Shown here piece by piece: positions 9,413 through 62,173 of a DNA stretch of 64,000 nt. A model generated the notes under the pieces. It was given only the letters and a program-made list of their open reading frames with translations, was not told the origin of the DNA and ran no database searches. A program made the position numbers and the translations under genes. The stretch spans positions 1,707 to 65,706 of the forward strand of contig JAGOOP010000006.1 of NCBI GenBank assembly GCA_017992455.1. The letters are read 5' to 3'. Positions within the stretch are counted from its first letter, which is position 1. The number at the start of each line of letters is the position of its first letter. Origin of the DNA: Candidatus Omnitrophota bacterium. GTDB taxonomy: Bacteria > Omnitrophota > Gorgyraeia > Gygaellales > Profunditerraquicolaceae.

Positions 9413-10531
9413 TTATTTCTCCGGCGCGCTGGCCGCAGGTTTTGTCTTAAGCGTTGCGACGGTCTTGACGACGCGGAATCCCACCACCTGCCGGCTCAAA
9501 TAATCGAAACTGCGGAACCGGTTGTTATAGACTTCGGGATGGATCACCGCATCCATGACGAACGGCATGCCCATGCCTTTGCGATAGCCCGGATCGAGGA
9601 GAAAACTGCCTCCCCTGATCACCCGCGCAGCCCGGAACGACTTGAACACCGGCAGATTGAAAAAAAGTGTCTGCCCCGCGCCCACCGGATCCGTCAGTTT
9701 GGTTCCGCCCGAATAGAAATCGTTATACCAGTCATTGCACCATTCTGCGACATTGCCGGCCATATCGCAAATGCCCAGCTTGCTGTCGCCTTTGGGCGAA
9801 TACGAGCCCGCGGCGGTCGTATCCACGTCAACGGGGTCCTTGACCGTATGCCCCATGTTCGCGAACGAATCATCACCGGGTTCATTGCCCCACGGGAACG
9901 CGCGTCCGTCGTCAAAGCACGCGGCATATTCCCATTCCGCTTCGGTCGGAAGCCGGTAGCCGGTCTTGCCGTACACCTGGCACGACCAGTCATCGAGGTT
10001 ATATAAGGTCGGGAACCCTTCCATTTCGCCGAGCATATTGCAGAAGAACGCGGCGCCGTACCAGGACACTTCGACCACGGGAAAATCCTCCTTGCCCGGA
10101 TGCGGCTTGAATTTTCCGTCAACGAACGCGATCTGCGAATGCTCGTCGAAAACATCCTGGTATTTCTGCGGCGAACGGGACACGCCGCGGGCTTCCCTCT
10201 TTTTCGCGTCCTCGGCCAATGCCGCCTTGTCGAGGTATCCTTTGGACAGGGCGAAATTCAGCACATCGGCGTACTGCTGATTGGAAACTTCGTATTTTCC
10301 GATGTAGAAATCATCGGTCAATGTTACCTCGTGCATTGGCTTGGCGTTGGCGAATTCATCAGAGCCCATCATGAACGTGCCGGCAGGGACCTTGACCATC
10401 TGGGATATCACGACCTGCGCAGGCGCCTCAGCCCCCTGCTGTCCCTGCTGCGAGAACGCCTGCCGCGATGCAGTCCACGTACCCGCGCCGATCGCCGCCG
10501 CCGCGCACACCCATATTCCCAATCGTCTCAT
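9413..10531 (-). CDS. Formylglycine-generating-enzyme (FGE-sulfatase/SUMF1) family protein, secreted
   Basis: 372 aa with a signal peptide. Motifs MVKVPAGTFMMGS, YRLPTEAEWEYAA, GNVAEWCNDWY and RVIRGGSF. Confidence 0.9.
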   Translation of the reverse strand: MRRLGIWVCAAAAIGAGTWTASRQAFSQQGQQGAEAPAQVVISQMVKVPAGTFMMGSDEFANAKPMHEVTLTDDFYIGKYEVSNQQYADVLNFALSKGYLDKAALAEDAKKREARGVSRSPQKYQDVFDEHSQIAFVDGKFKPHPGKEDFPVVEVSWYGAAFFCNMLGEMEGFPTLYNLDDWSCQVYGKTGYRLPTEAEWEYAACFDDGRAFPWGNEPGDDSFANMGHTVKDPVDVDTTAAGSYSPKGDSKLGICDMAGNVAEWCNDWYNDFYSGGTKLTDPVGAGQTLFFNLPVFKSFRAARVIRGGSFLLDPGYRKGMGMPFVMDAVIHPEVYNNRFRSFDYLSRQVVGFRVVKTVATLKTKPAASAPEK

Positions 10532-12358: not shown

Positions 12359-13783
12359 TTAATGTCCCGGCACTTTTGCCGTCCGGTACTGCTCGAACCC
12401 GCCTGAGCGCGCGACCTGTAATGCGCTCACCAGCGCCCACATTGTCGCGCAGGACAATCCGACTGCAAGAAAATTGAACTGTGAACGGAACACATCCACG
12501 CCCGGAAATGCGGATGCCGCTTTTAAAATGACCGGCGATAAGAACTGGCCCAGGTATATGCCGCAGCTCACAATGGCCATGGATAATGCCCTGCCCTGCT
12601 CCGGAGTGATGCGCGCGACGCGAAGAAGCAGGATCGGCATGAGAATGCCTGAACTGAACCCGATGAACAACATTGCTATGAGCACGCCGGCAAGGGAATA
12701 TGTCCGGCCGAGCAGCGCATACCCCAGGGCCATGGACGCGATCCCCAGCGCCGTGCAATACGGACCGAATATATGCAGCAACGCGGCCAGAATTATCCCG
12801 GATACAACTCCCACCATGGTCATGGTCGAAAGGTAAAAGCCCGCGATGCCGGGCCGTCCGATACGCTCCGAAGATACGACGAGGCGGTCGGTTTCTCTGG
12901 TCACGACAAAACGCCGGGACCGGTCTTTAATGATCCATGCTTTTCCCGGCTCTTTAACGGAGAAAGAGGCTTTCGGCGACAGCGCGATGCCGTTATCCTT
13001 GAACGCTGCGCGCACTGAATCGGACAGGGTCCCGGTGCGCAAATGCGATTCCAGCTCCGCTTTGTCCTTGAAAAGCGGGGTCACGCTCGTGTACATCTGC
13101 TGCTGGTTCTCGATGAACATGGCAAGATTCGTGGGCGCGGCGTAAAAAGCGACCATCATGAGCGCTCCGATAACGGCGCACCAGTATATCTGCCACGGCA
13201 GGCTTACCTTGGCGCCGCCTGCCGCTTTTTTCACCGGCGGTTCAGGCAGCCAGAAAAAAACCGTCACCATGATCAGCGCTGAAAGGCCGTACACCCCGAA
13301 CGCATACCGCCACGACATGCACGCAAGCCAGCCGGACAACAAAAGGAATAAAACTCCTCCGAAATGAGAAACCGAACCGGACAGCCCCATCATTTTTGCC
13401 CGCTCCTGTTTCTCATAAAAATCGGCGATGAGACTGATGGAAAGCGGGATGATAAGCCCCACGCCGATCCCGAATATGCCCCGGATAACGAGCAATTGCG
13501 CGATCGTGCGCGCAAAGCCGCCTCCGACGCCGGCGAGGAAATAGATCACCAGGCCGATAAGCAGGATCGTCTTTTTGGGCATGCGCGACGCGAGCCATCC
13601 GCCGAGCAGGCTGAACGGAATGATCAATAAAGACGGCAAAGTCAGGACCAGCTTGATGAGCGTGATGTCCGTGCCGGGAAATGCCTGGCGGATCTTTGCC
13701 AGAGCCGGCGAGATCGCAGCCGACGCCATGACCGTAAGCAGGGAGATCGACAGGATGCTTATCCTGACCAATAACGTGTTCAT
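12359..13783 (-). CDS. MFS transporter with ~90-aa insertion in the central loop
   Basis: Start moved to ATG 13783 (MNTLLVRISILS...). Support is SD aaggggg and an ATGA overlap with the upstream stop. About 12 TM segments. The ORF-track start at 13906 adds an Arg-rich non-membrane extension. Confidence 0.85.
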   Translation of the reverse strand: MNTLLVRISILSISLLTVMASAAISPALAKIRQAFPGTDITLIKLVLTLPSLLIIPFSLLGGWLASRMPKKTILLIGLVIYFLAGVGGGFARTIAQLLVIRGIFGIGVGLIIPLSISLIADFYEKQERAKMMGLSGSVSHFGGVLFLLLSGWLACMSWRYAFGVYGLSALIMVTVFFWLPEPPVKKAAGGAKVSLPWQIYWCAVIGALMMVAFYAAPTNLAMFIENQQQMYTSVTPLFKDKAELESHLRTGTLSDSVRAAFKDNGIALSPKASFSVKEPGKAWIIKDRSRRFVVTRETDRLVVSSERIGRPGIAGFYLSTMTMVGVVSGIILAALLHIFGPYCTALGIASMALGYALLGRTYSLAGVLIAMLFIGFSSGILMPILLLRVARITPEQGRALSMAIVSCGIYLGQFLSPVILKAASAFPGVDVFRSQFNFLAVGLSCATMWALVSALQVARSGGFEQYRTAKVPGH

Positions 13784-16382: not shown

Positions 16383-16398
16383 ACACCCCTCCTGAAAT

Positions 16399-16434
16399 CT
16401 TAGGGACGGTTCTCAAAACTTAGGGACGGTTCTC
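16399..16434 (+). repeat. REP-A, two tandem direct copies (cttaGGGACGGTTCTC)
   Basis: cttagggacggttctc at 16399-16414 and again at 16419-16434, between the VOC stop and the DUF1566 start. Confidence 0.85.
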
Positions 16435-16435
16435 A

Positions 16436-16831
16436 TTATTTCCCCATTATCTCGATCAATATCCCGTCCGGATCCTTGATGAAAAAATAGCTTCTGCCGT
16501 CAACAAAACTGCGCAGATCGGCCGCGAATTTGACGCGCGCTTTCTTGAATTTATTATATGCGGCTGTAATATTGTTTGTCTCGAAAGAAAAATGTTTGAC
16601 GCCAAGGGTGCGAAGATCATTATCCAGAGTCTTTCTGTACTGCGGCAGCGGTCTGCGCTTCTTGAATTCGAACAGCTCTAATGTGATATTGCCGCGCTTG
16701 AGCAGCGCGATCGTCATGCCTTTATCTCTAAAGCTGTACCGCGCAGTCTGCCGCACGCCGAAGAACTTCCGGTAGAAAGCTATCGAACGCTGAAGGTTCC
16801 CGACGCTTATTGCGATATGCCCTAAAAACAT
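16436..16831 (-). CDS. VOC family protein (glyoxalase/bleomycin-resistance/dioxygenase fold)
   Basis: FLGHIAISVGNLQRSIAFYRKFFG ... YFFIKDPDGILIEI. Start set at ATG 16831. The ORF-track ATG at 16846 lies inside the REP hairpin arm, so the start is uncertain by 5 codons. Confidence 0.8.
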   Translation of the reverse strand: MFLGHIAISVGNLQRSIAFYRKFFGVRQTARYSFRDKGMTIALLKRGNITLELFEFKKRRPLPQYRKTLDNDLRTLGVKHFSFETNNITAAYNKFKKARVKFAADLRSFVDGRSYFFIKDPDGILIEIMGK

Positions 16832-16890
16832 GGGGACGGTTCTCATTTTTTCAGGGATCTGTTCTCAGAGAAAAAATGAGAACCGTCCCC
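16832..16890. repeat. REP-A inverted pair forming a 20-bp perfect hairpin (probable terminator)
   Basis: 16832-16851 (ggggacggttctcatttttt) is the reverse complement of 16871-16890. The 19-nt loop contains a degenerate third copy (gggatctgttctc). It sits between the TPP-enzyme stop (16897) and the VOC start. Confidence 0.85.
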
Positions 16891-16896
16891 AGTTTT

Positions 16897-18549
16897 TCAG
16901 ACTTTTCCTAATCCGAACGGCGGATACACTTCCGATTCGACCACAACGTCGATCAGCGCTGCCTTCCCGCAGGAAAGCGCATGCTTGAAAGCCGCGTCAA
17001 AATCCTCGAGTTTCTCAACATGCACGCCTGATGCCCTGCACGCCTCGGCATATTTGACGAAATCAGGGTTGGTGAATTGCATGAACGCCTGGTCGTTGAA
17101 CAGATTCAGCAGAAATTTCTTGATGACATTGAACTCGCCGTTATTGAAAATGACCCAGATGACCGGGATATTGTATTGTATCGCGGTCATCAGCTCGAAT
17201 CCCGCCATCTGATACGCGCCGTCCCCGCACCCGCAGATAACCGGCCGGCCCGGGTTCGCGCACTTTGCGCCGATCGCGCCGTTGACATGGCTTGCCATAG
17301 GGCCGAAACTTCCCGGGTTCTGATACACCTGATGTTTGGTCAGGTGCAGATAGCAGTTGAGCCAGAGCATATGCGAGCCGGCGTCGCCCATGACGATCGC
17401 GTTCTCGGGCATATTACGTGACATCGCCTTGACAAGGTCGGCCGGATGGATCTTGGTTCCGGGCGGCTGCACTGCCCGGTCATGCCACAGGTCCTTTTCG
17501 ACTTTCCTGACGGCGACCGAACTCACCCGCTTGGCCAGCGCCTGATGGAGCGCGATGATCGCAGGTTTTGCGTCGCTGTGCACCGGGCAATCGGCCTTGT
17601 ATACCTTGCCGATCTCATGCGGATCGATATTGATATGGATGAGGACCTTGTCCTTGAACAGGTCCGGCTTGAACCCGAAGCTCCAGTTCTGCGCGAATGA
17701 GTTGCCGATCGCGAGGATCACTTTGGAAGCGAGCAGATATTTATTCGCGCCGGGGTCGCCTGATGTGCCGAAGATGCCCGCGTACAACGGATGGTCTTCA
17801 GGGATCAGTCCTTTTGAATCCATCGTCGCGGTGAACGGTATCTGGAATTTTTCGGAGAACTCCTGCGCATCCTTTTCGCCGTGGCTTCTGATGACCCCGT
17901 ATCCGTACACCGCGCAGATCTGCTCGTTGTTCCGGATGGCCTGTGCCAGAGCATCCGCAGCGGCATCGATCTCGGACTGTTTCGGCAGGACCTTTTTGAT
18001 ATCGACCTTGATCTCGCGGAAATTCTTCACCGGCATGATCGTCACGTCTTTGGGCACGTGGACATGCACCGGCCCGGGCCGGCCTTCATAGGCGAGATTG
18101 ATCAATTCCTCAAGGATATCGCAGGTCGAATCAGGGTCTTCGATGATCCTGGATTTCTTTGTCGTCGCATTGAACATTGCGGGAGAATCAGGGGTGCGGG
18201 ATTTTCCGGTCGCCTCGTTCAGAGCGCCTTTGCCGCGGTCGCGCGCCGAGGTATACCCCGAGATCCCCAGAACAGGCAGGGAATCGGAATATGCGACCGC
18301 CAGGCCTGAGAACAAATTGAACTCGCCCGGGCCGCCGGTTGAAAAACACACGCCTAATTTATCGGAGAACATGGAATAACCGCATGCCATGAACGAAGCG
18401 GCCTGCTCATTGCGGATGATCACGGTTTTGACCTTCGTCGATTTTTTCAAAGCCAGCAGCATCGAGCCGTTGACCTGGCCTGATCCGCCGAACACATGGT
18501 CCACGCCCACGTGCTCGAGTGTTGCCACGATCGCCTCATTGACATCCAT
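16897..18549 (-). CDS. Thiamine-diphosphate-dependent enzyme, acetolactate-synthase-large-subunit-like
   Basis: 550 aa. N-terminal Pyr domain (GVDHVFGGSGQVNGSMLLAL). C-terminal TPP-binding motif GCGDGAYQMAGFELMTA...NNGEFN. SD AAGGAG. Confidence 0.9.
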   Translation of the reverse strand: MDVNEAIVATLEHVGVDHVFGGSGQVNGSMLLALKKSTKVKTVIIRNEQAASFMACGYSMFSDKLGVCFSTGGPGEFNLFSGLAVAYSDSLPVLGISGYTSARDRGKGALNEATGKSRTPDSPAMFNATTKKSRIIEDPDSTCDILEELINLAYEGRPGPVHVHVPKDVTIMPVKNFREIKVDIKKVLPKQSEIDAAADALAQAIRNNEQICAVYGYGVIRSHGEKDAQEFSEKFQIPFTATMDSKGLIPEDHPLYAGIFGTSGDPGANKYLLASKVILAIGNSFAQNWSFGFKPDLFKDKVLIHINIDPHEIGKVYKADCPVHSDAKPAIIALHQALAKRVSSVAVRKVEKDLWHDRAVQPPGTKIHPADLVKAMSRNMPENAIVMGDAGSHMLWLNCYLHLTKHQVYQNPGSFGPMASHVNGAIGAKCANPGRPVICGCGDGAYQMAGFELMTAIQYNIPVIWVIFNNGEFNVIKKFLLNLFNDQAFMQFTNPDFVKYAEACRASGVHVEKLEDFDAAFKHALSCGKAALIDVVVESEVYPPFGLGKV

Positions 18550-18563
18550 AGTCGACTCCTTTA

Positions 18564-18633
18564 AAAAAAGGGGGACGCTTCCCGTTTTCCCGGGACGCTT
18601 CCGCGTTGAAAACGGGAAGCGTCCCCCTTTTTT
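18564..18633 (-). terminator. REP-B inverted pair forming a 25-bp perfect hairpin terminator
   Basis: 18564-18588 (aaaaaagggggacgcttcccgtttt) is the reverse complement of 18609-18633. The loop holds a third partial copy (gggacgcttcc). T/A runs flank it, and it abuts the stop codon at 18632. Confidence 0.8.
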
Positions 18634-21011: not shown

Positions 21012-22576
21012 GGTTTTGCCCCTTTCTGGGCGCCTGTATACCGCACCGCCAGCATCGTAATGTCATCGGACTGCTGCGCGCCGCGGGCGAATACCGTCAC
21101 TTCCCGGCGCATTGCCTGGATCATGTCCTTGATACCGTTATCCTTAAGCGAAATGAGCTTTTCGCGAAGCCGCTCTTCGCCGAATTGTTTTCTATCCGGG
21201 TCCATGGCCTCGGTCACGCCGTCGGTATAGAGGAAGATCGTATCCCCGGGCTTCAAGCGCAGGCGCTCATTCGTGCATTTCAGGTCAGCCATGATACCCA
21301 CCACGAACCCGCACGCCATCTTGATGAAATTGAAACAGCCGGTCGCGTCGCACACCAGCGGCGGATTGTGGCCGCCGTTGGAGAACTCGATCTCGCCGGT
21401 GGCGATATCGAGGATCGCGCAGAAGACCGTGACGAACAGGCACGTCTGGTTGTCCTGGCACAGGATGCTGTTGACCACGGACAGGACCTCGTCCGTCGCC
21501 AAGCCCTGCTTCGCCTCGGTCTTGATGAGCGTCTTGCAGATGGCCATGAACAGCGCCGCGGGCACGCCCTTGCCTGAAACGTCGCCGATGACAAAGCACA
21601 ACCGCGACTCGTCGATGAAGAAGAAATCGTAAAAATCCCCGCCCACTTCTTTCGCCGGGTCCATCATGGCGAACAGTTCGAACTCCGCGCGTTCCGGGAA
21701 CACGCTCGGCAGCATGCTCGCCTGGATCTCCTGGGCGATGCGCAGTTCGCTTTCGATGCGCTCGCGCGCCGCGGTCTCGGCCTTGAGGTTCTCGATGAAC
21801 CGCTTGATGGAAAGCTGTATGAGGTCGATCGCCATGGCAGGATCTTTGCCGAAAAATTCGATCACCTCGTCCTTGCCCATCGTATAAACGTCCGTGTCTT
21901 CCTCGCACACGGCTGAAGCGGTCCGTTCCTTGAACGGCGAAAAGATGCCCATTTCCCCGAGCACATCGCCCTGCTTGACGACCTTGTCGATCTCAGGCAG
22001 ACGGATCGAGCCTTTGGCGATATAGAACATGCGGTCTGCCTTATCCCCTGCCTTGAACAGGCAATCCCCTTTTTTGTACGTCTCAAGCTTCATGAACGAG
22101 ATCGGCCAGCGGCACGAGTTGCCCGCTTTCGCAGCGGAGGCCTGGACCGCCGAATGCAGGTCCTTGGGGCTGCACGTATTGTATTTGACAAGGGTCAGGA
22201 TATTGCGGTCATTGTCCCGTTTATACGAAACATCGTCCATGATCTTCTTCATCATGAATACGCCCAGGCCGCCGATCTGGCGTTCTTCGATGGGCTTGTG
22301 GATATCGGGTTCGGGAAGGGATAAAGGATCAAAGGGGACGCCGGAATCGATGACCGTTATTTCCAGATATGAATTGCTGTTGAGATAGGTGATCTCGAGG
22401 TCTCCCGTGCCGCCGGGATACGCGTAATTGATCACGTTGACAAGCGCCTCTTCGCAGGCAAGCTGTATCTTGTCGATGTGCTCCTTGACAAAACCCTGGC
22501 GGGCTGCGCCTTCTCTGATAAAGGCGAACATGGTTTCGAGATTTTCCAGTTTGGCGGGCAGGACAAGGCGTTCCAT
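21005..22576 (-). CDS. Tri-domain fusion: RsbW-like GHKL kinase + cyclic-nucleotide-binding domain + PP2C/SpoIIE phosphatase
   Basis: 523 aa. Residues 1-135: CEEALVNVINYAY...GGLGVFMMKKIMDDV (HATPase_c_2-like). Residues ~165-260: FKAGDKADRMFYIAKG...GDVLGEMGIF...RTASAV (cNMP phosphate-binding cassette). C-terminus: AKEVGGDFYDF, GDVSGKGVPAALFMA, DGVTEA and SDDITMLAV (SpoIIE). Confidence 0.85.
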   Translation of the reverse strand: MERLVLPAKLENLETMFAFIREGAARQGFVKEHIDKIQLACEEALVNVINYAYPGGTGDLEITYLNSNSYLEITVIDSGVPFDPLSLPEPDIHKPIEERQIGGLGVFMMKKIMDDVSYKRDNDRNILTLVKYNTCSPKDLHSAVQASAAKAGNSCRWPISFMKLETYKKGDCLFKAGDKADRMFYIAKGSIRLPEIDKVVKQGDVLGEMGIFSPFKERTASAVCEEDTDVYTMGKDEVIEFFGKDPAMAIDLIQLSIKRFIENLKAETAARERIESELRIAQEIQASMLPSVFPERAEFELFAMMDPAKEVGGDFYDFFFIDESRLCFVIGDVSGKGVPAALFMAICKTLIKTEAKQGLATDEVLSVVNSILCQDNQTCLFVTVFCAILDIATGEIEFSNGGHNPPLVCDATGCFNFIKMACGFVVGIMADLKCTNERLRLKPGDTIFLYTDGVTEAMDPDRKQFGEERLREKLISLKDNGIKDMIQAMRREVTVFARGAQQSDDITMLAVRYTGAQKGAKPC

Positions 22577-32349: not shown

Positions 32350-34260
32350 TCATGAAAAACGCACCGCGAGCATGGTAATATCGTCCGACTGCGGCTCATC
32401 CTTGGCGAAATCGCGCAGGGCCCGGCGCAGCGACAGGACCATCTCTTTAATATCCTGCCCTTCCATTGCCTGCAGGGCAGAACGCAGGCCCTGTTCGGTA
32501 AAGAATTTTTTCTCCGGGTCAATGGCCTCGGTCACCCCGTCGGTATACAGGAACAGGGTATCCCCGCTGCCGAGCGTTATCGATGACTGTTTGTACGCAA
32601 ACCCCGCCATCGGGCCGAGGACAAAACCCTTGTCAACAGCAAGGTATTCAAAACGGCCCCCTGCCGGGCACACGAGCGGCGGATTGTGGCCTGCGTTGGC
32701 GAACTCGACCGCGCCGGTCCGCGTGTCAAGCACCCCGCACAGGACCGTGGCGAACATGCTCGTGTTATTATCGAGCGCGAGGATATTGTTCACCCGCGCC
32801 AGTATCTGCGCAGGAGACGATCCCTGCAGCGCTTCGTTCTTGAGCAATGTTTTGGTGATCATCATGAACAATGCCGCAGGCACGCCTTTGCCCGAAACAT
32901 CGCCCATGGCAAAATACAGCTTCGTTTCGTTGACAAGGGCAAAATCATAGAAATCCCCGCCGACCTCTTTTGCCGGCTCCATCATGGCGAAGATATCGAA
33001 TTCCTTCCGGTCAGGGAACGCCGGGAATATCCGCGGCAGTATCCCGGTCTGTATCTCGCGCGCGATCTTTAATTCGCTCTCGATGCGCTCCCTGGCAGCA
33101 GTGGCCTCGGTCAGCCTTCTGATATAGTCTTTGAGCGCATCCTTCATTGCGGCAAAAGCCTGGGTCAATCTGCCCACCTCGTCGCCTGATGCGTATCCGG
33201 GCAGAACCGCGTCGAGATCCCCCTTGCCGATCGCCTGCGCAGCATGGGCCATGCGCCGCAGGGGCTTGGTGATCGAATGCGATATGGCCGCGATCACCGC
33301 CACGAGCAGCAGTATGCCGAAAATGCCGACCCCTGCGGACACCAGGGTGTTCGTGCGGATGTCGGCGAACAGTTCGTCCTCGGGGAACACGACCGCAAGC
33401 GACCAGCCGCTGGCAGGCACGGGCGTGTAATACATCCAGCTTTTTTTATTGCGCACAATGGACATATACGGCACGAAACCCGTCTTGCCGGCAATCATCT
33501 CCCTGCCGATCCGCCGCAGCGCCGGGTCATTGCGGCGGGCCGCGACCGTGAATATCGTCTCGTTCATGATCAGGTCTTTATCCGCATGCGTGATGATCGT
33601 GCCGTTGCGCGACACCAGGTACGCGTCGCCGGTCTTGAGGATCCTGACCGAATTGACGATCGCGGTCAGATGTTCAAGCGATACGTCCGCGCAGATGATC
33701 CCGTGCAATTTCGGGCCGTACGGCGTCGTGTAGTAAAAAGGCACCGAATAGGTGCCCATCATGATATCGTCGAAATACGGTTCGCTCCAGACAGCGGCGT
33801 TGAGCTCGCGGGGTATCTGATACCAGTCCTCGTAGAAATACCGGTATGCGTCATCACCCATATAGGTGAGGACCAGCCCCTTCTTTTCCTTCGCATAGTA
33901 CGGGGCGAAATAAAGCAGGCCCGGGTCGAATGCGTACGGCTCGAACGCGATGCCCATGCCGTAGATCTCGTCGTTATTGGCCACCGCCAGCCGCAGAAGA
34001 TCGTCGATTTCCTGTTTGTTCAGGCTGCCGGATTCGATGGCAAGGGCGAGGTTCTGGGGGATCTCTTCGATCTCCGACAGCGCGCCGTTGATCTTGTTGA
34101 CCGCGCGCAACGCGATGTTCTCTGCAGTCTGCCGGATATCGGAAAGGATGATCCGGCGCGAAAGATGGAAATTCAACCCGATGATCGACAGAAAAATGAT
34201 CGAGCAGCTGCCGGAGAAAAACAGGATGAATTTGAACGCGAGGCTTCTATTCCTGAACAT
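32350..34260 (-). CDS. Cache-like sensor + HAMP + PP2C/SpoIIE phosphatase
   Basis: 636 aa. TM, then ~270-aa periplasmic dCache-like region (WYQIPRE...WSEPYFDD...ICADVSLEHL), TM, HAMP (ITKPLRRMAHAAQAIGKGDLD). The SpoIIE domain is clearly paralogous by eye to that of 21005-22576. Confidence 0.85.
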   Translation of the reverse strand: MFRNRSLAFKFILFFSGSCSIIFLSIIGLNFHLSRRIILSDIRQTAENIALRAVNKINGALSEIEEIPQNLALAIESGSLNKQEIDDLLRLAVANNDEIYGMGIAFEPYAFDPGLLYFAPYYAKEKKGLVLTYMGDDAYRYFYEDWYQIPRELNAAVWSEPYFDDIMMGTYSVPFYYTTPYGPKLHGIICADVSLEHLTAIVNSVRILKTGDAYLVSRNGTIITHADKDLIMNETIFTVAARRNDPALRRIGREMIAGKTGFVPYMSIVRNKKSWMYYTPVPASGWSLAVVFPEDELFADIRTNTLVSAGVGIFGILLLVAVIAAISHSITKPLRRMAHAAQAIGKGDLDAVLPGYASGDEVGRLTQAFAAMKDALKDYIRRLTEATAARERIESELKIAREIQTGILPRIFPAFPDRKEFDIFAMMEPAKEVGGDFYDFALVNETKLYFAMGDVSGKGVPAALFMMITKTLLKNEALQGSSPAQILARVNNILALDNNTSMFATVLCGVLDTRTGAVEFANAGHNPPLVCPAGGRFEYLAVDKGFVLGPMAGFAYKQSSITLGSGDTLFLYTDGVTEAIDPEKKFFTEQGLRSALQAMEGQDIKEMVLSLRRALRDFAKDEPQSDDITMLAVRFS

Positions 34261-35286: not shown

Positions 35287-35294
35287 TAAATAAT

Positions 35295-35380
35295 GGGGAC
35301 GGTTCTCCAAAAACATAGGGACGGTTCTCCTTCGGAAAACATGGGGACGGTTCTCCGAACGAGAACCGTCCCCATGTTTT
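35295..35380. repeat. REP-A cluster: three direct copies plus one inverted copy
   Basis: ggggacggttctcc at 35295, 35318 (ggg) and 35343, with an inverted gagaaccgtcccc at 35361-35373. 35336-35355 and 35361-35380 form a perfect 20-bp hairpin with loop cgaac. The cluster lies between divergent promoters. Confidence 0.85.
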
Positions 35381-42673: not shown

Positions 42674-43372
42674 TCACCCCTCAAAAAAGGGGGACGCTTC
42701 CCTTTTTTTCCGCGGGCGCCCTATCAGAGGAATTCCCATTTTTATGCCATTCTGCCGACATAATGCTTCAATATAGCGATCGCTGCCGATGATCGCCGCT
42801 CTGGCCAGCTTAGCTGAGTTGACAAGTATATCGTTTACCACGAATTTGATATACCTTTCCCGCCTTGCGAGCGGATGTTCCGCCAGCTCGATATACTCAG
42901 GGCTGTCGCTGACAACATCATCGGGAATACCAAACGCATAATGGCGATAACTGCTAAAACGATAATCCTCCGGCATACGCACCATACCAGCCCGGACAGG
43001 ATTAAGTTCGATATATTTGCCGCACTGCAATAAGTACACGTTGGTTTCAATAACATTACTTTTATATCTTCCCTGCCAAACATGTCCGTAATACCCGTAT
43101 TTCCTTCTGTAAAAATTATAATACGATAGGTTCAACTGCTTCATAAACTTTGCGAACCGACTCATCTGGATAATCCATGCAATAAAATGAATGTGAGTCG
43201 CCATGATGCAGTAATGGAATATATCGATCTTATTCTCGGTTTTCAACTCTTTCAACAATTTCCAGTAAAAAAGCTTGTCGCTGTCGTCATGGAAAACGAC
43301 TTGTTTGTTATTGCCCCTGCACATAACATGCAGAGCTGAATCTTGCGGGACTATCCTGCTATGTCTCGGCAT
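42674..43372 (-). CDS. REP-associated tyrosine transposase (RAYT; IS200/IS605 Y1 transposase superfamily)
   Basis: Start moved to ATG 43372 (MPRHSRIV...; SD GGAGG). HUH motif in CIMATHIHFIAW and catalytic-Tyr helix GKYIELNPVRAGMV. The last codons (REASPFFEG) are encoded by a REP-B copy. Confidence 0.85.
   Translation of the reverse strand: MPRHSRIVPQDSALHVMCRGNNKQVVFHDDSDKLFYWKLLKELKTENKIDIFHYCIMATHIHFIAWIIQMSRFAKFMKQLNLSYYNFYRRKYGYYGHVWQGRYKSNVIETNVYLLQCGKYIELNPVRAGMVRMPEDYRFSSYRHYAFGIPDDVVSDSPEYIELAEHPLARRERYIKFVVNDILVNSAKLARAAIIGSDRYIEALCRQNGIKMGIPLIGRPRKKREASPFFEG
42683..42709 (+). repeat. REP-B single copy (aaaaaaGGGGGACGCTTCCCttttttt)
   Basis: Core 42689-42702. It lies within the 3' end of the RAYT CDS. 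Confidence 0.8.
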
Positions 43373-43427
43373 GGTGGATCCTCCTTCCTTTAAAAGAATA
43401 GACGCGCCAGAAAGGAAAATCTCACTT

Positions 43428-43501
43428 AAAAAAAAGGGGGACGCTTCCCTTTTCCTCGCAAGCTGGCTTGCCGGGGAAAAGGGAAGCGTCCCCCTTTTTT
43501 T
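43428..43501 (-). terminator. REP-B inverted pair forming a 27-28-bp hairpin terminator
   Basis: 43428-43455 (aaaaaaaagggggacgcttcccttttcc) pairs with 43475-43501. The loop has a mini-hairpin gcaagc/gcttgc. It begins at the YeeE-like stop codon (43500) and is followed by a U-run on the minus strand. Confidence 0.8.
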
Positions 43502-44021
43502 ATTTAGTCTCGAACAGCGCAAAAAGCGCGATCACGCCAATGATCACCAGCGGTATGACAACCCAGTGATTGACATGCAGGATCTGCGGTATGGTGATCT
43601 TGCCAAGATCAGCCCAGGTCAGAACGGTTTTTTTGAGGAACGGGTACATATGCGAGAATATCCCCGCGCCCGTTACCATGCCCAGGACAGCCCAGAACGC
43701 ATCCACGCGGCCCTCGCCCAGCGCAGCCAGGGACGTCGCAGGGCAATACCCGACAAGCGCCCAGCCGGCGCCGAACAAGAGCCCGCCGAATATCACCGCG
43801 CCCAGTATCGCCGGCTTGACCGCAAGTTTGACGATCCCGGCATCCTTGAGAATATAGATACCCACCATCCCGAAGATGATCGCAGAGAACATGAATTTGA
43901 TCACGGTCATATCCTTGAACAAGAGCACATTGATCTGCCTGTCGAACCGGATCACCTGCGCGCGCTGAAGAAGAATACCGAAAACGATCCCCGTGATCAA
44001 TCCGATAAGGTTCGTATTCAT
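43500..44021 (-). CDS. YeeE/YedE family (sulfur-compound transport) membrane protein, second half-gene
   Basis: 173 aa from ATG 44021 (MNTNLIGLITGIVFGILLQR...; SD AAGGAGG; ATGA overlap with the upstream stop). GYCPATS motif. The 352-aa ORF-track call is an artefactual upstream extension. Confidence 0.8.
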   Translation of the reverse strand: MNTNLIGLITGIVFGILLQRAQVIRFDRQINVLLFKDMTVIKFMFSAIIFGMVGIYILKDAGIVKLAVKPAILGAVIFGGLLFGAGWALVGYCPATSLAALGEGRVDAFWAVLGMVTGAGIFSHMYPFLKKTVLTWADLGKITIPQILHVNHWVVIPLVIIGVIALFALFETK

Positions 44022-48462: not shown

Positions 48463-49743
48463 TCAAAAAGTTTTCTTGAACTTTATCATGACCGTATCAT
48501 TGGCAACTTTATCCGCGGGCGCTCCGGACGCGGGAGCCGGTTTCAATTCCTTTTGCACTCCCAGCGAGATCGTATCGCTCACTTTCAGTTCGCCGCTGAC
48601 GGTCGTTGTGATCTCGGGTTCTTTCTCCGGGCTCTGCGTCTGAACGACCCCGTACCCGACCTCGACCTTTTCAGACACCGCGCCCGTGACGCCGACGCCT
48701 TTTTTCGTTTCGTCGAACGTCACGGAAACACCGGTGATGCCGAATTTGCGCGCGATCGTGCTCCCTGACCCGCCCAGCACGAAATAATCGAAAAGGTCCA
48801 TTGCCAGGTCAGGAGCGAGCCCGCCCTGGCTGAACGACGTGCCCACCCCTGCCCATTGCCTGCCCGTTGCCAGCATCACGAGCAATTGTTCCTGCGGCAG
48901 GAGCGGATCCGAAAAAAGCTGGATATCCGGCTCGTCGACCGTGCCTTTGACCGCAACCCTGATCTTGACCTGTTCGACCGTCGATCGTCCCCGCACGTCA
49001 AGCCGCGGTTTCGCGATGTCTGCCGTAAATACGAGCCTGCTTTCATCAAGCACGACGACCGCGGTCCTGCGGCCTGATACCGTTCCGGTCTTGATGACAA
49101 GCGCGCCTTTCACACTGCCCGCATCCGGCTCGTCCGTGAACGCCAGGTCGCAGACAAGCGGCGCATCGGTCATGGAAAATCCTTCATACGTAAGGCGCTG
49201 GGCGACCGCGGTACCCGTCAATGCCAGGTCGTTCAGCGTTCCCTCGAGCGCCAGATCGATCTGCGAAAGAGTCCCTGCCAGAAGGACCGCGGACCGTTTC
49301 AACCCGAAGAAGGTTATCAGGCTGTCGAGAGCGACTTTCTGGGAATATATCTTGAGGTCGAGAATACCCCCGGAATATGCCCCGTAGAAACGGATGGCCT
49401 CTCCCGTCGGCAGGAACAGAGAACCGCCCGAGATCGTGACATGGATGCCGTCGATGCCGGGGCGGGTGACCCGGATATCGATCTGCCGGATAGCGATCGA
49501 ACTTCCCGCGGGCAGCTCCTTCAATCCGGCGGCGCTGACATTGCGCAGCGTGAACCCGGACGCGATACTTCCCTCGGCGTCCTCAAATGTGATATTCTCG
49601 GCATTGCTGTACCGCGCGATCGCTTTCTCCGCCGCGAACTCGCCTCCGGCCGTGGTGAACAGAAAAAAATACGCCGCGCCGGCCCCTGCGGCCAGCAGGA
49701 AGGCGGCGAAAATCATTATCTTGAAATAAGCCTTCACTGCCAT
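48463..49743 (-). CDS. TamB-like (DUF490-type C-terminus) translocation/assembly module protein, short form
   Basis: Start moved to ATG 49743 (MAVKAYFKIMIFAAFLLAAGAG, TM anchor). C-terminal LFSDPLLPQEQLLVMLATGRQW...FGITGVSVTFD resembles the TamB DUF490 region. Confidence 0.65.
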   Translation of the reverse strand: MAVKAYFKIMIFAAFLLAAGAGAAYFFLFTTAGGEFAAEKAIARYSNAENITFEDAEGSIASGFTLRNVSAAGLKELPAGSSIAIRQIDIRVTRPGIDGIHVTISGGSLFLPTGEAIRFYGAYSGGILDLKIYSQKVALDSLITFFGLKRSAVLLAGTLSQIDLALEGTLNDLALTGTAVAQRLTYEGFSMTDAPLVCDLAFTDEPDAGSVKGALVIKTGTVSGRRTAVVVLDESRLVFTADIAKPRLDVRGRSTVEQVKIRVAVKGTVDEPDIQLFSDPLLPQEQLLVMLATGRQWAGVGTSFSQGGLAPDLAMDLFDYFVLGGSGSTIARKFGITGVSVTFDETKKGVGVTGAVSEKVEVGYGVVQTQSPEKEPEITTTVSGELKVSDTISLGVQKELKPAPASGAPADKVANDTVMIKFKKTF

Positions 49744-49744
49744 G

Positions 49745-50941
49745 CTATCTGCTTTCGGTTGACTCCCCGACCCCGGGCGGGGCCTTCTTCCACTCATACC
49801 CCTTCAATGCCTGCTCGAACCCAAGGTCGAAGAGCGCCTGCATTTCGGCGCGGTCGAACGGTTCTCGTGCTTTTGATACGTGGGTCGAAGGGATATACGC
49901 CAGGTTGAAATCCCCCCTGCCTTCGCGCGTGAACATATACAGCCGGTAAATATCCCCGATGCTCTGGGACGTGGTCAGGGTATCGACGGCGCGCTCGGCG
50001 ATCGCCAGGATCCTGTCAGGCACCTCTTTGTACAGGGAATCGACATATCCGTTGCGGATGACATAGACGACGTACTTGTTCCGGCCCGGATCGATGCGCT
50101 TTTCCTTCAATGCCTTTTCCATGCCCTGAACGACATCATACAGGAAGAACACCTGCTTGGAAATGCCGCCGTCCACGTGCATCTCATCATAGACCTCGCT
50201 GTCCGCTTCGGCCTCGATATACACAGGCGGGAACGCGATGGGGATGGATGCGGACGCAAGGATGATCTTGCGGAATAATTTAAGCGCATTCTCGTCGCCG
50301 ATGGACGCGATCCTGCCCATATCCCAGATGGTAAGGCGCTGGGCATCGAGGTTGGTCGTGCCGATATACAGCCTGCGGCCTTTACGATACTCCGCCGCAA
50401 TATCCTTCAGAAGCCCTTCGTTAAAATACTGGTCGATAAGGCGCGCGAGCGGCTTGGTGCTCGCGAACGAATTGCTGAACGGAATACGCAGGCGGATCAG
50501 GTCCCGCGTGGAATACCTCGTGTAAAACTCCTTCATGACCGCGTCGCGGCTGCTGCCGAGGAACGCATACGGCGCGATGACCGCGCCGGTGCTGATGCCG
50601 GTCACGACCCTGAACTCGGGCCGCGTTCCTGCCTGCGACCAGCCGTTCAGGATACCGGCCCCGTACGCGCCGTTGGCGCCCCCTCCTGAAATAGCCAGCA
50701 GATGGAACGTCTGCGGCTCGCTGTCGACCGGAAGCGCGCCCCTGTTCTTCTCCTCCTGTTCAAGCAAAGTGACAAAGTCATGTTTGAACGCATCGCTCGG
50801 GCCTCCGCCAAAGGTCCTGATATCCTTCATGCCGAATATGCTGACGTCGTAAATAAGATCCGGAGGGACCGCGTGCCGCACCGTGGCACAGCCGGAGGCA
50901 AGGAGCGCAAGGACAAAAATGATGCACAACCGTTTTACCAT
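49745..50941 (-). CDS. Patatin-like phospholipase lipoprotein
   Basis: Start moved to ATG 50941 (MVKRLCIIFVLALLASGC, lipobox). ISGGGANGAYGAG (oxyanion hole), GISTGA (GxSxG) and VDGGI (catalytic Asp). Confidence 0.85.
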   Translation of the reverse strand: MVKRLCIIFVLALLASGCATVRHAVPPDLIYDVSIFGMKDIRTFGGGPSDAFKHDFVTLLEQEEKNRGALPVDSEPQTFHLLAISGGGANGAYGAGILNGWSQAGTRPEFRVVTGISTGAVIAPYAFLGSSRDAVMKEFYTRYSTRDLIRLRIPFSNSFASTKPLARLIDQYFNEGLLKDIAAEYRKGRRLYIGTTNLDAQRLTIWDMGRIASIGDENALKLFRKIILASASIPIAFPPVYIEAEADSEVYDEMHVDGGISKQVFFLYDVVQGMEKALKEKRIDPGRNKYVVYVIRNGYVDSLYKEVPDRILAIAERAVDTLTTSQSIGDIYRLYMFTREGRGDFNLAYIPSTHVSKAREPFDRAEMQALFDLGFEQALKGYEWKKAPPGVGESTESR

Positions 50942-53069: not shown

Positions 53070-53072
53070 GAC

Positions 53073-53130
53073 AAAAAACTTAGGGACGGTTCTCTCCCCT
53101 TCGGGGGAGAGAACCGTCCCTAAGTTTTTT
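53073..53130 (-). terminator. REP-A inverted pair forming a 27-bp perfect hairpin terminator with TTCG loop
   Basis: 53073-53099 (aaaaaacttagggacggttctctcccc) is the reverse complement of 53104-53130, with a TTCG loop. A/T runs sit on both sides, and it lies 9 nt after the stop at 53140. Confidence 0.85.
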
Positions 53131-53139
53131 GTCCCGAAC

Positions 53140-55663: not shown

Positions 55664-55665
55664 CA

Positions 55666-55715
55666 AAAACATAGGGACGGTTCTCCCTCAAAAGGGAGAA
55701 CCGTCCCTATGTTTT
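55666..55715 (-). terminator. REP-A inverted pair forming a 22-bp perfect hairpin terminator
   Basis: 55666-55687 (aaaacatagggacggttctccc) is the reverse complement of 55694-55715. It lies 2 nt after the stop at 55718. Confidence 0.85.
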
Positions 55716-55717
55716 CC

Positions 55718-58829: not shown

Positions 58830-58850
58830 CAACTCTCCTCAAAAAACAAA

Positions 58851-58910
58851 GGGACGTTTCTATGATCTGGGGGGCTCTTTTAAAGAGACCAAAAACCACA
58901 GAAACGTCCC
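58851..58910 (-). terminator. REP-like nested hairpin (GGGACGTTTCT / AGAAACGTCCC), probable terminator
   Basis: 58851-58861 is the reverse complement of 58900-58910. There is an inner hairpin ggctcttt/aaagagacc. On the minus strand it is followed by tttgtttttt. It lies downstream of the small CxxC gene. Confidence 0.55.
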
Positions 58911-58939
58911 CTGGTTTTTAATTTTTTTAAAAGGGGGGA

Positions 58940-61205: not shown

Positions 61206-61279
61206 ATATAGGGACAGGTCCGCCGTTTTAGTCTCGTCGACAAAAAGGGGCAGAACTGTCCCCAGACCAATTTGAACAT
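61202..61279 (-). CDS. Candidate 25-codon upstream ORF overlapping the radical SAM start (speculative)
   Basis: Own translation: MFKLVWGQFCPFLSTRLKRRTCPYI. SD GAAAGGAG 7 nt upstream, and its TGA overlaps the radical SAM ATG (ATGA). Most of the coding sequence is repeat copy A, so it may be fortuitous. Confidence 0.25.
   Translation of the reverse strand: MFKLVWGQFCPFLSTRLKRRTCPYI
61211..61263 (+). repeat. 53-55-bp repeat family, copy A (GGGACAGGTCCGCC...CTCGTCGACAAAAA...CTGTCCCC)
   Basis: gggacaggtccgccgttttagtctcgtcgacaaaaaggggcagaactgtcccc. The ends ggacag/ctgtcc are self-complementary. Confidence 0.8.
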
Positions 61280-61298
61280 GCGCTTGCTCCTTTCGACG

Positions 61299-61307
61299 AT
61301 TATATCA
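61299..61307 (-). promoter_or_regulatory. Extended -10 promoter (TGATATAAT)
   Basis: The minus strand reads ctgTGaTATAATcg, between repeat copies B and A and upstream of the SD/uORF/radical SAM gene. Confidence 0.45.
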
Positions 61308-61314
61308 CAGCACA

Positions 61315-61369
61315 GGGGAACAGGTCCACCGTTTTAGTCTCGTCGAAAAAAAGTGGCAGAACTGGCCCC
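61315..61369 (+). repeat. 53-55-bp repeat family, copy B
   Basis: ggggaacaggtccaccgttttagtctcgtcgaaaaaaagtggcagaactggcccc. It differs from copy A at only a few positions and lies 5 nt after the ORF6N stop. Confidence 0.8.
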
Positions 61370-61374
61370 TTTCA

Positions 61375-61896
61375 CTAATCCCGATTGAACCCGATCGGCG
61401 GCTTCTTCGGTTCCGGCGGCTCCGGCTGCGGCGGCACCGGCTCCAGCAGCTTCTTGATCGCCTCAAAAACGACGAAGAATTTCCTATCATACTTACGCTC
61501 CATCTCATCTATCTTTCGTTTTAACCCCACATAAGTTAAACCTACTCTGCGCATCATTACAAAAGCGCGCATGATTTGAATGTTGACCTTAACAGCTCGT
61601 TCGCTATGCAGCACACTCGAAAGCATCGCTCCCCCTTCCTGGGTAAACGCAAAGACATTCGGGGCATGTTTTATCCGTGAACTTATCACAATTTGTGATA
61701 AGTTCATTATCTCCTGACGGCTTAAAGAAAACAGAAAATCTTCAGGGAAACGATCAATATTGCGTCTAACCGCCTGATTTAACGCACGAGTTTGAACGCC
61801 GTATAGCTTTGCGAGGTCCATATCCAACATTACTCGCTTTCCTCGCAATTCATAAATCTTACTAGCTAGAAGATCCGGTGAAATGATATTGTTCAT
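61375..61896 (-). CDS. ORF6N domain-containing protein (KilA-N-related DNA-binding, phage/mobile-element associated)
   Basis: Start moved to ATG 61896 (MNNIISPDLLASKIYELRGKRVMLDMDLAKLYGVQTRALNQAVRRNIDRFPEDFLF...; SD AAAGGAGAG). Pro/Glu-rich C-terminus. Confidence 0.85.
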   Translation of the reverse strand: MNNIISPDLLASKIYELRGKRVMLDMDLAKLYGVQTRALNQAVRRNIDRFPEDFLFSLSRQEIMNLSQIVISSRIKHAPNVFAFTQEGGAMLSSVLHSERAVKVNIQIMRAFVMMRRVGLTYVGLKRKIDEMERKYDRKFFVVFEAIKKLLEPVPPQPEPPEPKKPPIGFNRD

Positions 61897-61920
61897 ATTC
61901 TCTCCTTTCTTGTTTATCTT

Positions 61921-62024
61921 GATATCACAATTTGTGATATCAAGTCTGCAACTTATTGCAATATAGAATGTTGTGAATTTGAAGTGACAATTTGGCACTT
62001 CAAGATATCACAGTTTGTGATATC
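61921..62024. promoter_or_regulatory. Array of three 21-bp palindromic operators upstream of ORF6N
   Basis: gatatcaca-att-tgtgatatc (61921-61941), gaagtgaca-att-tggcacttc (61981-62001, one mismatch) and gatatcaca-gtt-tgtgatatc (62004-62024). A fourth, ttatcaca-att-tgtgataa, lies inside the CDS at 61683-61701. Confidence 0.7.
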
Positions 62025-62077
62025 CTCTAGTCTAATAGACGCGCGAAAGAAGAATCTCTCACACAAATATTACAAAC

Positions 62078-62103
62078 AAAAAAGCGCCGATTCTATTCGG
62101 CGC
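62078..62103 (-). terminator. Intrinsic terminator
   Basis: The minus-strand RNA GCGCCGA-auagaa-UCGGCGC has a 7-bp perfect stem and is followed by UUUUUU. It lies downstream of the PHP-kinase gene. Confidence 0.7.
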
Positions 62104-62118
62104 CTCAATCCCCCCCAA

Positions 62119-62173
62119 GGGGACACTTTTGCCCGTTTTTGTCGACGAGCCCGATTCAGCGGACCTGTCCCCC
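62119..62173 (-). repeat. 53-55-bp repeat family, copy C (inverted relative to A and B)
   Basis: The reverse complement reads gggggacaggtccgctgaatcgggctcgtcgacaaaaacgggcaaaagtgtcccc. It overlaps the last codons (GGQVR-stop) of 62156-63682. Confidence 0.75.

Follow-up and report, generated by a model that had tools for sequence, protein, structure and literature searches.

A 64,000-nucleotide stretch of DNA from a Candidatus Omnitrophota bacterium (assembly GCA_017992455.1, contig JAGOOP010000006.1), called the window below, contains at positions 42674-43501 a gene for a tyrosine transposase of the Y1/HUH superfamily that lies between inverted copies of its own repeat. The evidence supports placement of the protein in the lineage of the tyrosine transposases associated with repetitive extragenic palindromic (REP) sequences, or RAYTs (class 2, with a Y---NP motif), and not among the TnpA proteins of IS200/IS605 insertion sequences (ISs). 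Gene and repeats together probably constitute a "TIRtron", in which a gene of the TIRYT branch (Quentin subclass 2.1, Bertels Group 1), single-copy and fixed in the chromosome, is accompanied by its own repeats. TIRYTs are tyrosine transposases with terminal inverted repeats (TIRs) that share the sequence GGGGWSAS rather than being GTAG REPs (Di Nocera 2013, PMC3733652; Bertels 2017, PMC5581495), and subclass 2.1 corresponds to Bertels' Group 1 and, probably, to Di Nocera's TIRYTs, according to Quentin (PMC6006769).

The open reading frame (ORF) encodes 232 amino acids, starting from an ATG seven bases past AGGAAGGAGG, which includes an AGGAGG ribosome-binding site (RBS). The HUH motif and Y1 helix recognized in this product by the initial annotation are borne out: the metal-binding motif is T-H60-I-H62-F (THIHF), the catalytic tyrosine is Y120 in YIELNPVRAGMV (Y120-IELNPVRAGMV), and the protein scores 43.9 bits with the Pfam family Y1_Tnp (PF01797; gathering score 23), which all 64 of the aligned relatives match as well. 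H60, H62 and Y120 are invariant in alignments of 15 and of 64 sequences, in which N-H-x-H, W-Q, Y-I-E-L-N-P-V-R-A, F-S-S-Y (residues 139-142 of the window protein) and a C-terminal G-R-P amid basic residues are also nearly or fully invariant; the family consensus is NHVH / WQ / YIELNP / FSSY over 225 amino acids. The C-terminus of the window protein carries an AT-hook-like sequence, G218-R-P-R-K-K, although the Pfam AT_hook model was matched by only 2 of the 64 members (E ~0.15). The arginine codon of GRP is AGG in some genomes and CGC in others, and thus the constraint acts on the protein. A protein database search returned 1,903 relatives, nearly all of ~225 amino acids, and all of the named ones are from Omnitrophota; the identical protein and its neighbour have been deposited as proteins of Candidatus Omnitrophota metagenome-assembled genomes (MAGs), in agreement with the non-proteobacterial lineage that had been surmised. 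The gene is also more AT-rich than its surroundings, as had been noted, with a GC content of 0.44 compared with 0.56 in the surrounding 20 kb and lowest windows of 0.39. A longer ORF of 282 amino acids from TTG 43522 was rejected: it passes through the upstream repeat doublet, and MPR is the start in every homologue.

Searches of sequence and structure databases agree on the affinities of the protein. The sole sequence match in the PDB was E. coli TnpA_REP (4ER8, E 0.006), and no chains of IS608, ISDra2 or IS200 were among the PDB sequence matches even at E <= 10. A model built with AlphaFold (AF2) from 64 relatives has a pLDDT (predicted local distance difference test score) of 78, with low confidence in the C-terminal 60 residues; its top fold match was again 4ER8 (E 3.4e-7, template modelling score of 0.68 for the target), and the transposases of IS608, ISDra2 and IS200 ranked next (2VJV and 2XM3 among the fold matches). 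The sole NCBIfam model matched was REP_Tyr_transpos (RAYT, NF047646), at 54.8 bits, under its cut-off of 80, and the IS200 model gave no match to the window protein at E <= 0.1. Omnitrophota and proteobacterial relatives scored 54-77 bits with the RAYT model and 21-28 bits with that of IS200 (transpos_IS200, cut-off 55). Together these results place the protein nearer to the RAYTs than to the IS200 group within the superfamily, yet beyond the bounds of the canonical RAYT equivalog (Quentin subclasses 2.2, 2.4, 2.5, 2.7 and 2.8).

The motifs narrow this placement. Table 1 of Quentin 2018 characterizes subclass 2.1 by NHVH (or NH[YF]H), W[EQ], YIELNP, an SS tail and a median length of 238 amino acids (PMC6006769). 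By comparison with that table, rather than with the authors' hidden Markov models, the WQ, YIELNP, SS tail and 232-residue length of the window protein fit the subclass 2.1 row, and the only motif difference is THIH for NHVH. Two proteins from proteobacterial plasmids, encoded between GGGGWSAS TIRs, are also homologous to it over the full length (E 2e-32 and 2e-24). C-terminal similarity to helix-turn-helix (HTH) families (Bac_DnaA_C, HTH_23 or HTH_28) has been reported for subclass 2.1, and the C-terminal region of subgroup 2.1.2 has been described as heterogeneous (PMC6006769).

The repeat that brackets the gene, here called REP-B, is over-represented in the window, where GGGGGACGCTTCCC occurs five times (18570+, 18614-, 42689+, 43436+, 43481-) against an expectation of 0.07, a count reached by none of 100 dinucleotide-preserving shuffles. 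The gene lies between the members of a 24-nt inverted pair (42683-42706 / 43477-43500) that is 100% complementary. The inverted pair that had been described upstream of the gene was recovered by a repeat finder as a doublet with 30-nt arms of 97% complementarity (Table 1), which overlaps the stop codon (43500-43502) of the preceding sulfur-transporter gene. The copy said to be embedded in the 3' coding end (42689-42702) likewise exists: the repeat and the bases directly after it encode the final nine residues (R-E-A-S-P-F-F-E-G) and supply the stop. In nine other loci a TAG stop lies inside the terminal unit (TAGAA[ACG]CGTCCCC; ..AAAATAGAA[ACG]CGTCCCC..), whereas the REP-B of the window has GGG in place of TAG, and reading continues 7 codons further to a TGA; this substitution accounts for both the 232-residue length and the presence of a repeat within the 3' coding end. 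As single-stranded DNA the REP-B doublets have folding energies of -36 to -39 kcal/mol, with z-scores of around -9 to -10; the upstream doublet reaches -38.9 and -36.9 kcal/mol on its two strands (z about -10), and the lone unit at the 3' end of the gene folds weakly, at -6.8 kcal/mol (z -2).

Table 1. Positions of the transposase gene, its leader and the repeat-family features in the window
Feature	Position	Strand	Details
Y1/HUH tyrosine transposase gene, probable TIRYT type (subclass 2.1 / Group 1 RAYT relative)	42674..43372	-	Pfam, NCBIfam, alignments, 4ER8
Leader, doublet to ATG	43373..43428	-	GTGAGAT-N14-CGTCTATT at 43397-43422 and RBS AGGAAGGAGG
Downstream terminal repeat unit, REP-B (AAAAAAGGGGGACGCTTCCCTTTT on + strand)	42683..42706	+	over last codons and stop of gene
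Upstream head-to-head REP-B doublet	43429..43501		arms 43429-43458 / 43472-43501; distal arm is the upstream TIR
Dispersed REP-B doublet, no gene inside	18564..18633		arms 18564-18589 / 18608-18633, 26 nt, 100% complementary
REP-A (AAAAC[AT]T[AG]GGGACGGTTCTC), two clusters around glyoxalase-family gene	16392..16900		tandem pair 16392-16442, doublet 16822-16900
REP-A cluster	35288..35380		three direct units and one inverted
REP-A doublet	53070..53133		30-nt arms, 100% complementary
REP-A doublet, intergenic	55664..55717		23-nt arms, 100% complementary
Third sub-type doublet (GGGACGTTTCT)	58840..58920		variant dominant in some other Omnitrophota genomes

The layout was compared between the window and 11 further Omnitrophota loci, whose homologues have 48-64% protein identity. 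A common layout was found in all ten intact loci (the window, L011, L013, L014, L070a, L071, L072, L073, L074 and L084): at least one unit, composed of an A-tract, GGGGACG[C/T/G]TTC(TA) and a T-tract, is located 70-150 bp upstream in + orientation, with its A-tract outward, and an inverted unit is located right at the end of the ORF. In gene orientation the order is a repeat unit (doubled in the window), a promoter-like leader, the ORF, and the inverted unit over the stop. There are two exceptions: L086, which is shortened by an IS256-type insertion, and the second Y1 paralogue of L070 (11681-12373), which has another repeat, GGGGTCAGAATTAT (GGGGTCAG, an exact fit to GGGGWSAS). The Omnitrophota core GGGGACGC matches GGGGWSAS at seven of eight positions, and relatives on proteobacterial plasmids (36% identity in P. 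aeruginosa, 32% in R. rubrum) are arranged in the same way around GGGGACAG or GGGGTCAG, both of which are GGGGWSAS sequences.

The two Y1 paralogues of L070 (10001-12373) are 1 kb apart with a ribbon-helix-helix (RHH)/Fic pair between them, and are accompanied by the repeats GGGGACGGTTCTA and GGGGTCAGAATTAT, respectively. The core of the latter is found also in a hairpin at 461-557 of the window (40-nt arms, 95% complementary; core GGGGTCAGAATTAT, with GGGGTCAG as an exact fit to GGGGWSAS), which suggests that a second pair of enzyme and repeat is, or formerly was, present in the source genome.

These features bear on the possibility that the gene is a canonical RAYT (E. coli/Pseudomonas type, Quentin 2.2/2.5) with a divergent REP, which is considered improbable. 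In its favour, the gene is single-copy, its nearest neighbour by both structure and sequence is 4ER8, and it is flanked by inverted repeats that are also dispersed as doublets resembling REPINs (REP doublets forming hairpins). However, the NCBIfam RAYT score is under the cut-off; the unit consensus aAAAaanGGGGACGnTTCTanttttt, derived from 88 units over the window and eight loci, contains neither a GTAG nor a GTGG foot; the lone unit is a weak palindrome; the core resembles the GGGGWSAS of TIRYTs; and the motifs, SS tail and length of about 230 amino acids fit subclass 2.1 and not 2.2 (DHLH, YIHYNP, 165 amino acids) or 2.5. Thus, where the initial annotation had proposed a RAYT flanked by its own REPs, the lineage stands and the canonical GTAG-REP identity does not. 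Its proposal of such a system outside the Proteobacteria holds as an occurrence but not as a novelty, as RAYT/TIRYT systems have already been published from Cyanobacteria, Bacteroidetes, Acidobacteria, Planctomycetes and Verrucomicrobia, the PVC (Planctomycetes-Verrucomicrobia-Chlamydiae) group included.

The genomic setting of the gene was examined across public assemblies. Nineteen public contigs, drawn from numerous samples, encode the exact protein, in every case with two Sulf_transp genes on one side and a Zip-family gene on the other, and each of 21 contigs that include the adjacent Zip gene carries the Y1 gene; only one copy of a Y1 gene was found in the window by tblastn. So far as the assemblies show, it behaves as a fixed, single-locus chromosomal gene. 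Sixteen strain loci show no differences in the gene or in its flanks, but background divergence is ~0-1 per kb outside one recombined tract, and so this identity says nothing about selection. The tract, of about 1.2 kb in Patatin/TamB-like genes (window 49000-50200 compared with L002 and L003), contains ~195/~200 of the strain differences and is probably a recombination import.

An ordinary autonomous IS of the IS200/IS605 type, with the inverted repeats as its ends and the doublets as miniature inverted-repeat transposable elements (MITEs) of a currently active IS, is hard to reconcile with this fixed setting and is regarded as an improbable explanation. One context recurs throughout the 19 to 21 contigs, which derive from numerous samples, and the homologues are each situated amid different housekeeping genes; the tyrosine motif is Y---NP and not the Y---Q of that family (Table 1, PMC6006769); there is no match to the NCBIfam IS200 model; and no OrfB/TnpB-type gene adjoins the window gene or is found in any of 12 homologue loci. 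Accompaniment by TnpB was among the findings named beforehand as refuting a RAYT. The paralogues of L070 have different repeats and therefore are not copies of one IS, although their proximity, like the insertion of another IS into L086, would suit a mobile element. Also in keeping with an IS are the shared superfamily fold and HUH/Y chemistry, the GC content 12 points under that of the surroundings, which suggests foreign origin, and the presence of Group 1 on plasmids according to Bertels (PMC5581495), to which 23 plasmid records with relatives of the window protein may be added.

The TIRtron interpretation extends to the repeats dispersed away from the gene. GGGAC-NN-TTC cores number 21 in the window against 2.2 expected, all of them intergenic, and comprise 12 of GGGACGGTTCTC (REP-A), six of REP-B, two of GGGACGTTTCT and one variant; one of the REP-B cores (18592) belongs to a partial unit without the full 14-mer. 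The wider repeat family has the form GGGACG(N)TTC, and REP-B makes up only a minor part of it. The hairpin of REP-B previously noted at 18564-18633 is confirmed as a doublet with perfectly complementary arms, is intergenic, ends ~15 nt ahead of a start codon, includes the partial third core, and folds at -36 kcal/mol (z -8.7). Among neighbouring units within 100 nt of each other, 30 pairs are in +/- orientation, none are -/+ and 11 are direct. The +/- doublet, with A-tracts outside, has the orientation of the units that bracket the gene, and therefore a doublet equals the element minus its interior, the same relation as that of REPIN to REPtron or MITE to IS. Unit density varies from 0.10 per kb in L070 (gene flanks only) through 0.15 in L071 and L072 to as much as 1.16 in L073.

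Doublets are located at gene ends. Their A-tract, long GC-rich stem and T-tract give them the look of two-way intrinsic terminators or of hairpins at mRNA ends, as which they may function; the segment 53079-53124 within a REP-A doublet was terminator-like on both strands in a simple scan. No Rfam families were found in the window by a scan at gathering thresholds. The REP-A doublet at 35344-35380 differs between strains by a matched change in the two arms (ATGGGG..CCCCAT compared with ATAGGG..CCCTAT), implying that doublet symmetry is maintained or that the whole doublet was replaced. No cognate gene for REP-A was found in the window, and a second paralogue of the same genome serving REP-A was sought in vain: the candidates P0013 and P0047 belong to other organisms.

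The REP-B 18-mer AAAAGGGGGACGCTTCCC was found in 18 stretches of a genome collection and 36 of a metagenome contig collection, neither of which includes the source genome; this is about chance level. Doublets or tandems of the 18-mer with the same A/T tracts are also present in Gammaproteobacteria, Deltaproteobacteria and Oscillospiraceae MAGs (the loci outside Omnitrophota being L027, L039, L037, L023, L029, L056 and L017), which indicates that the repeat type is not confined to Omnitrophota; no Y1 gene was found within the 8-kb stretches around these non-Omnitrophota loci. A different kind of repetition in the window consists of 300-nt stretches within 21165-21632 and 32483-32950, which are 68% identical (79% over an 84-nt core), 11.3 kb apart and in direct orientation, and are probably paralogous coding sequence.

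The gene might instead be a domesticated or decaying relic, with the hairpins purely elements of the host (terminators or mRNA stabilizers) and the association historical, but this is improbable. The ORF is intact and full-length with all of its catalytic residues, complementarity between the flanking repeats is perfect over 24 nt, which speaks against long decay, and the layout has been kept in ten genomes at 50-64% protein identity, which points to continuing selection on the arrangement of gene plus repeats. A relic would account for the terminator-like doublets exactly at gene ends, for the loss of the TAG stop in the terminal repeat, for N59T in an N-H-x-H motif that is otherwise 98% conserved, for the commoner REP-A not being the flanking type, and for insertion polymorphism between strains not being seen.

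Some of these observations weigh also against the TIRtron interpretation itself, together with several others. The threonine that replaces asparagine at position 59 of the window protein, where 98% of relatives have Asn, may impair it. Similarity to Bac_DnaA_C, HTH_23 or HTH_28 was not found by Pfam in the 64 members (E <= 1) or in three plasmid relatives. REP-A, the commonest sub-type in the window with twice the count of REP-B, is not the one flanking the gene, and the enzyme may act on the rarer REP-B alone or on no repeat at all. Dispersal of doublets is not universal: in L070, L071 and L072 units are confined, or almost confined, to the gene itself, with one extra unit in L071. The over-representation was established for the window and the homologue loci. 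No differences in presence or absence of doublets were seen between the sampled strains, and hence recent movement is not directly indicated. Cleavage and mobility, for TIRYTs generally, are proposed by analogy.

If the enzyme acts as E. coli TnpA_REP and IS608 TnpA do, it would recognize the repeat unit in single-stranded, folded form; Y120 would cut beside the unit while H60 and H62 hold a metal ion, and the strands would be rejoined, with the result that head-to-head doublets without a gene could be moved or copied into intergenic DNA. The AT-hook-like C-terminal tail, GRP(R/K)K, may hold the A/T tracts that are found beside every unit. The terminator-like form of the doublets could account for their retention by the host.

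The leader between the upstream doublet and the start codon contains a second conserved feature. Its consensus in the homologues, (T)GTTAGAT-N14-(R)CGTCWATT, is at fixed spacing ahead of 10 of 10 aligned homologues and is present in every homologue locus. In the window the motif was found twice against 0.14 expected, on the minus strand at 43397-43422 and at 62034-62057. Promoters of extracytoplasmic function (ECF) sigma factors have an 'AAC'-type -35 element and a 'CGT' -10 element, which TGTTAG-N16-CGTCTA resembles in sequence. RNAalifold predicts that the pyrimidine-rich spacer of the leader pairs with the RBS (11 pairs, modest covariation); 86% of cells are paired, compared with 58-67% when the pairing is slid, which in an alignment-level test is suggestive only, and as a DNA hairpin in the window sequence alone the leader is no better than shuffles (z -0.2). 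An ECF-type promoter is somewhat more likely than a hairpin that occludes the RBS, and the two are compatible.

The leader motif is also located ahead of genes that do not encode transposases, namely an ORF6N gene in the window and, in L074 (which has the motif at 6893-6918, 9945-9970 and 12959-12984), a gene after an ECF sigma gene and a Sortilin-like gene; before the latter stands a second copy of the transposase's entire doublet-plus-leader segment. The ORF6N-domain gene (Pfam PF10543, 100 bits; window ~61896-61375 on the minus strand, likely ATG at 61896) is preceded by the transposase-type motif CGCGTCTATT and bounded by 53-nt repeats, one upstream (62171-62119) and two inverted downstream (61369-61317 and 61263-61211). 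These repeats have a GGGGWSAS-like end of the GGGGACA[GC] type on at least one side each, with GGGGACAG at 61211-62171. The segment 61211-62171 (minus strand) looks like a TIRtron with a non-transposase gene, and is a possible passenger cassette.

A bolder proposal, to which only a low probability is assigned, is that the Omnitrophota TIRYT keeps large populations of doublets as the lineage's intergenic two-way terminators, and that its left end (the doublet plus the ECF-type promoter TGTTAG-N16-CGTCTA) has been copied before unrelated genes, namely the ORF6N cassette (61211-62171) and the Sortilin-like gene of L074. If this were true, one Y1 transposase system would spread both transcription stops and stress-responsive starts around a genome.

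In the literature that could be searched, REPs or RAYTs in Omnitrophota were not mentioned, and TIRYTs were named by only two of the papers cited here. The present results extend RAYT/TIRYT repeat systems to this phylum, which is known mostly from metagenomes. For subclass 2.1, Quentin et al. detected neither REP-like sequences nor this association with repeats (PMC6006769). As one layout is conserved in ten genomes and the orientation rule is 30 to 0, the comparative evidence ties this large, biochemically uncharacterized subclass (2.1 / Group 1) to flanking repeats and indicates that it can amplify REPIN-like doublets. In a first biochemical study of a TIRYT, the conserved 11-nt core could serve as a substrate and the invariant GRP tail as a target for mutation. 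For annotation, the system accounts for abundant intergenic hairpins, 'transposase' calls and the 7-codon ORF extension in these MAGs.

Compared with known systems, the window element shares with the IS200/IS605 TnpA proteins (IS608, ISDra2, IS200) the catalytic fold and a presumed single-strand cut-and-rejoin reaction on hairpin ends, but differs in its Y---NP motif, the lack of tnpB, its one fixed copy in place of many identical ones, and a protein ~80 amino acids longer. Its ends are true inverted repeats, whereas those of IS200/IS605 are different left and right hairpins. IS200 controls tnpA by an upstream hairpin and an RBS-occluding leader, and the doublet of the window, with its T-tract and the leader that follows, recalls such control.

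With E. coli TnpA_REP and other RAYTs (4ER8; subclass 2.2; Bertels Group 2) the element has in common the HUH/Y1 fold, of which this is the best structural match, a single-copy gene between inverted cognate repeats, intergenic doublets without a gene, and hairpins at gene ends. It differs in having only 18% sequence identity and 232 rather than 165 amino acids, with an extra C-terminal region, and in that the REP of E. coli is a strong though imperfect palindrome that has GTAG at its 5' foot, whereas the window unit is a weak hairpin closed by A/T, with the core inside. CGTC is present, as in CGTC-tagged REPs, both in the unit (GAAGCGTCCCC on the sense strand of the gene) and in the leader motif (CGTCTATT); no dedicated transposase was found for CGTC REPs by Di Nocera (PMC3733652). 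Membership of that class was rejected, as its tag is unpaired at the end of a stem-loop while the CGTC of the window is inside the unit and the doublet stem, and the resemblance is probably coincidental.

The closest likeness is to the TIRYT/TIRtron systems: a protein of ~230 amino acids with WQ, YIELNP and an SS tail, low copy number, inverted repeats that bracket the gene at a fixed distance upstream and over the 3' end ('3'ov'), and TIRs that form dimer families in some genomes. The window core departs from the TIRYT motif in having G rather than A at position 7 and in extending to GGGGACG-N-TTCTA, and the window protein departs from the description of subclass 2.1 in having THIH for NHVH and no HTH detected by Pfam. 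TIRYTs were described as 'less productive' than RAYTs by Di Nocera (PMC3733652); unlike this published picture, doublets are present at 0.6-1.2 units per kb in several Omnitrophota genomes.

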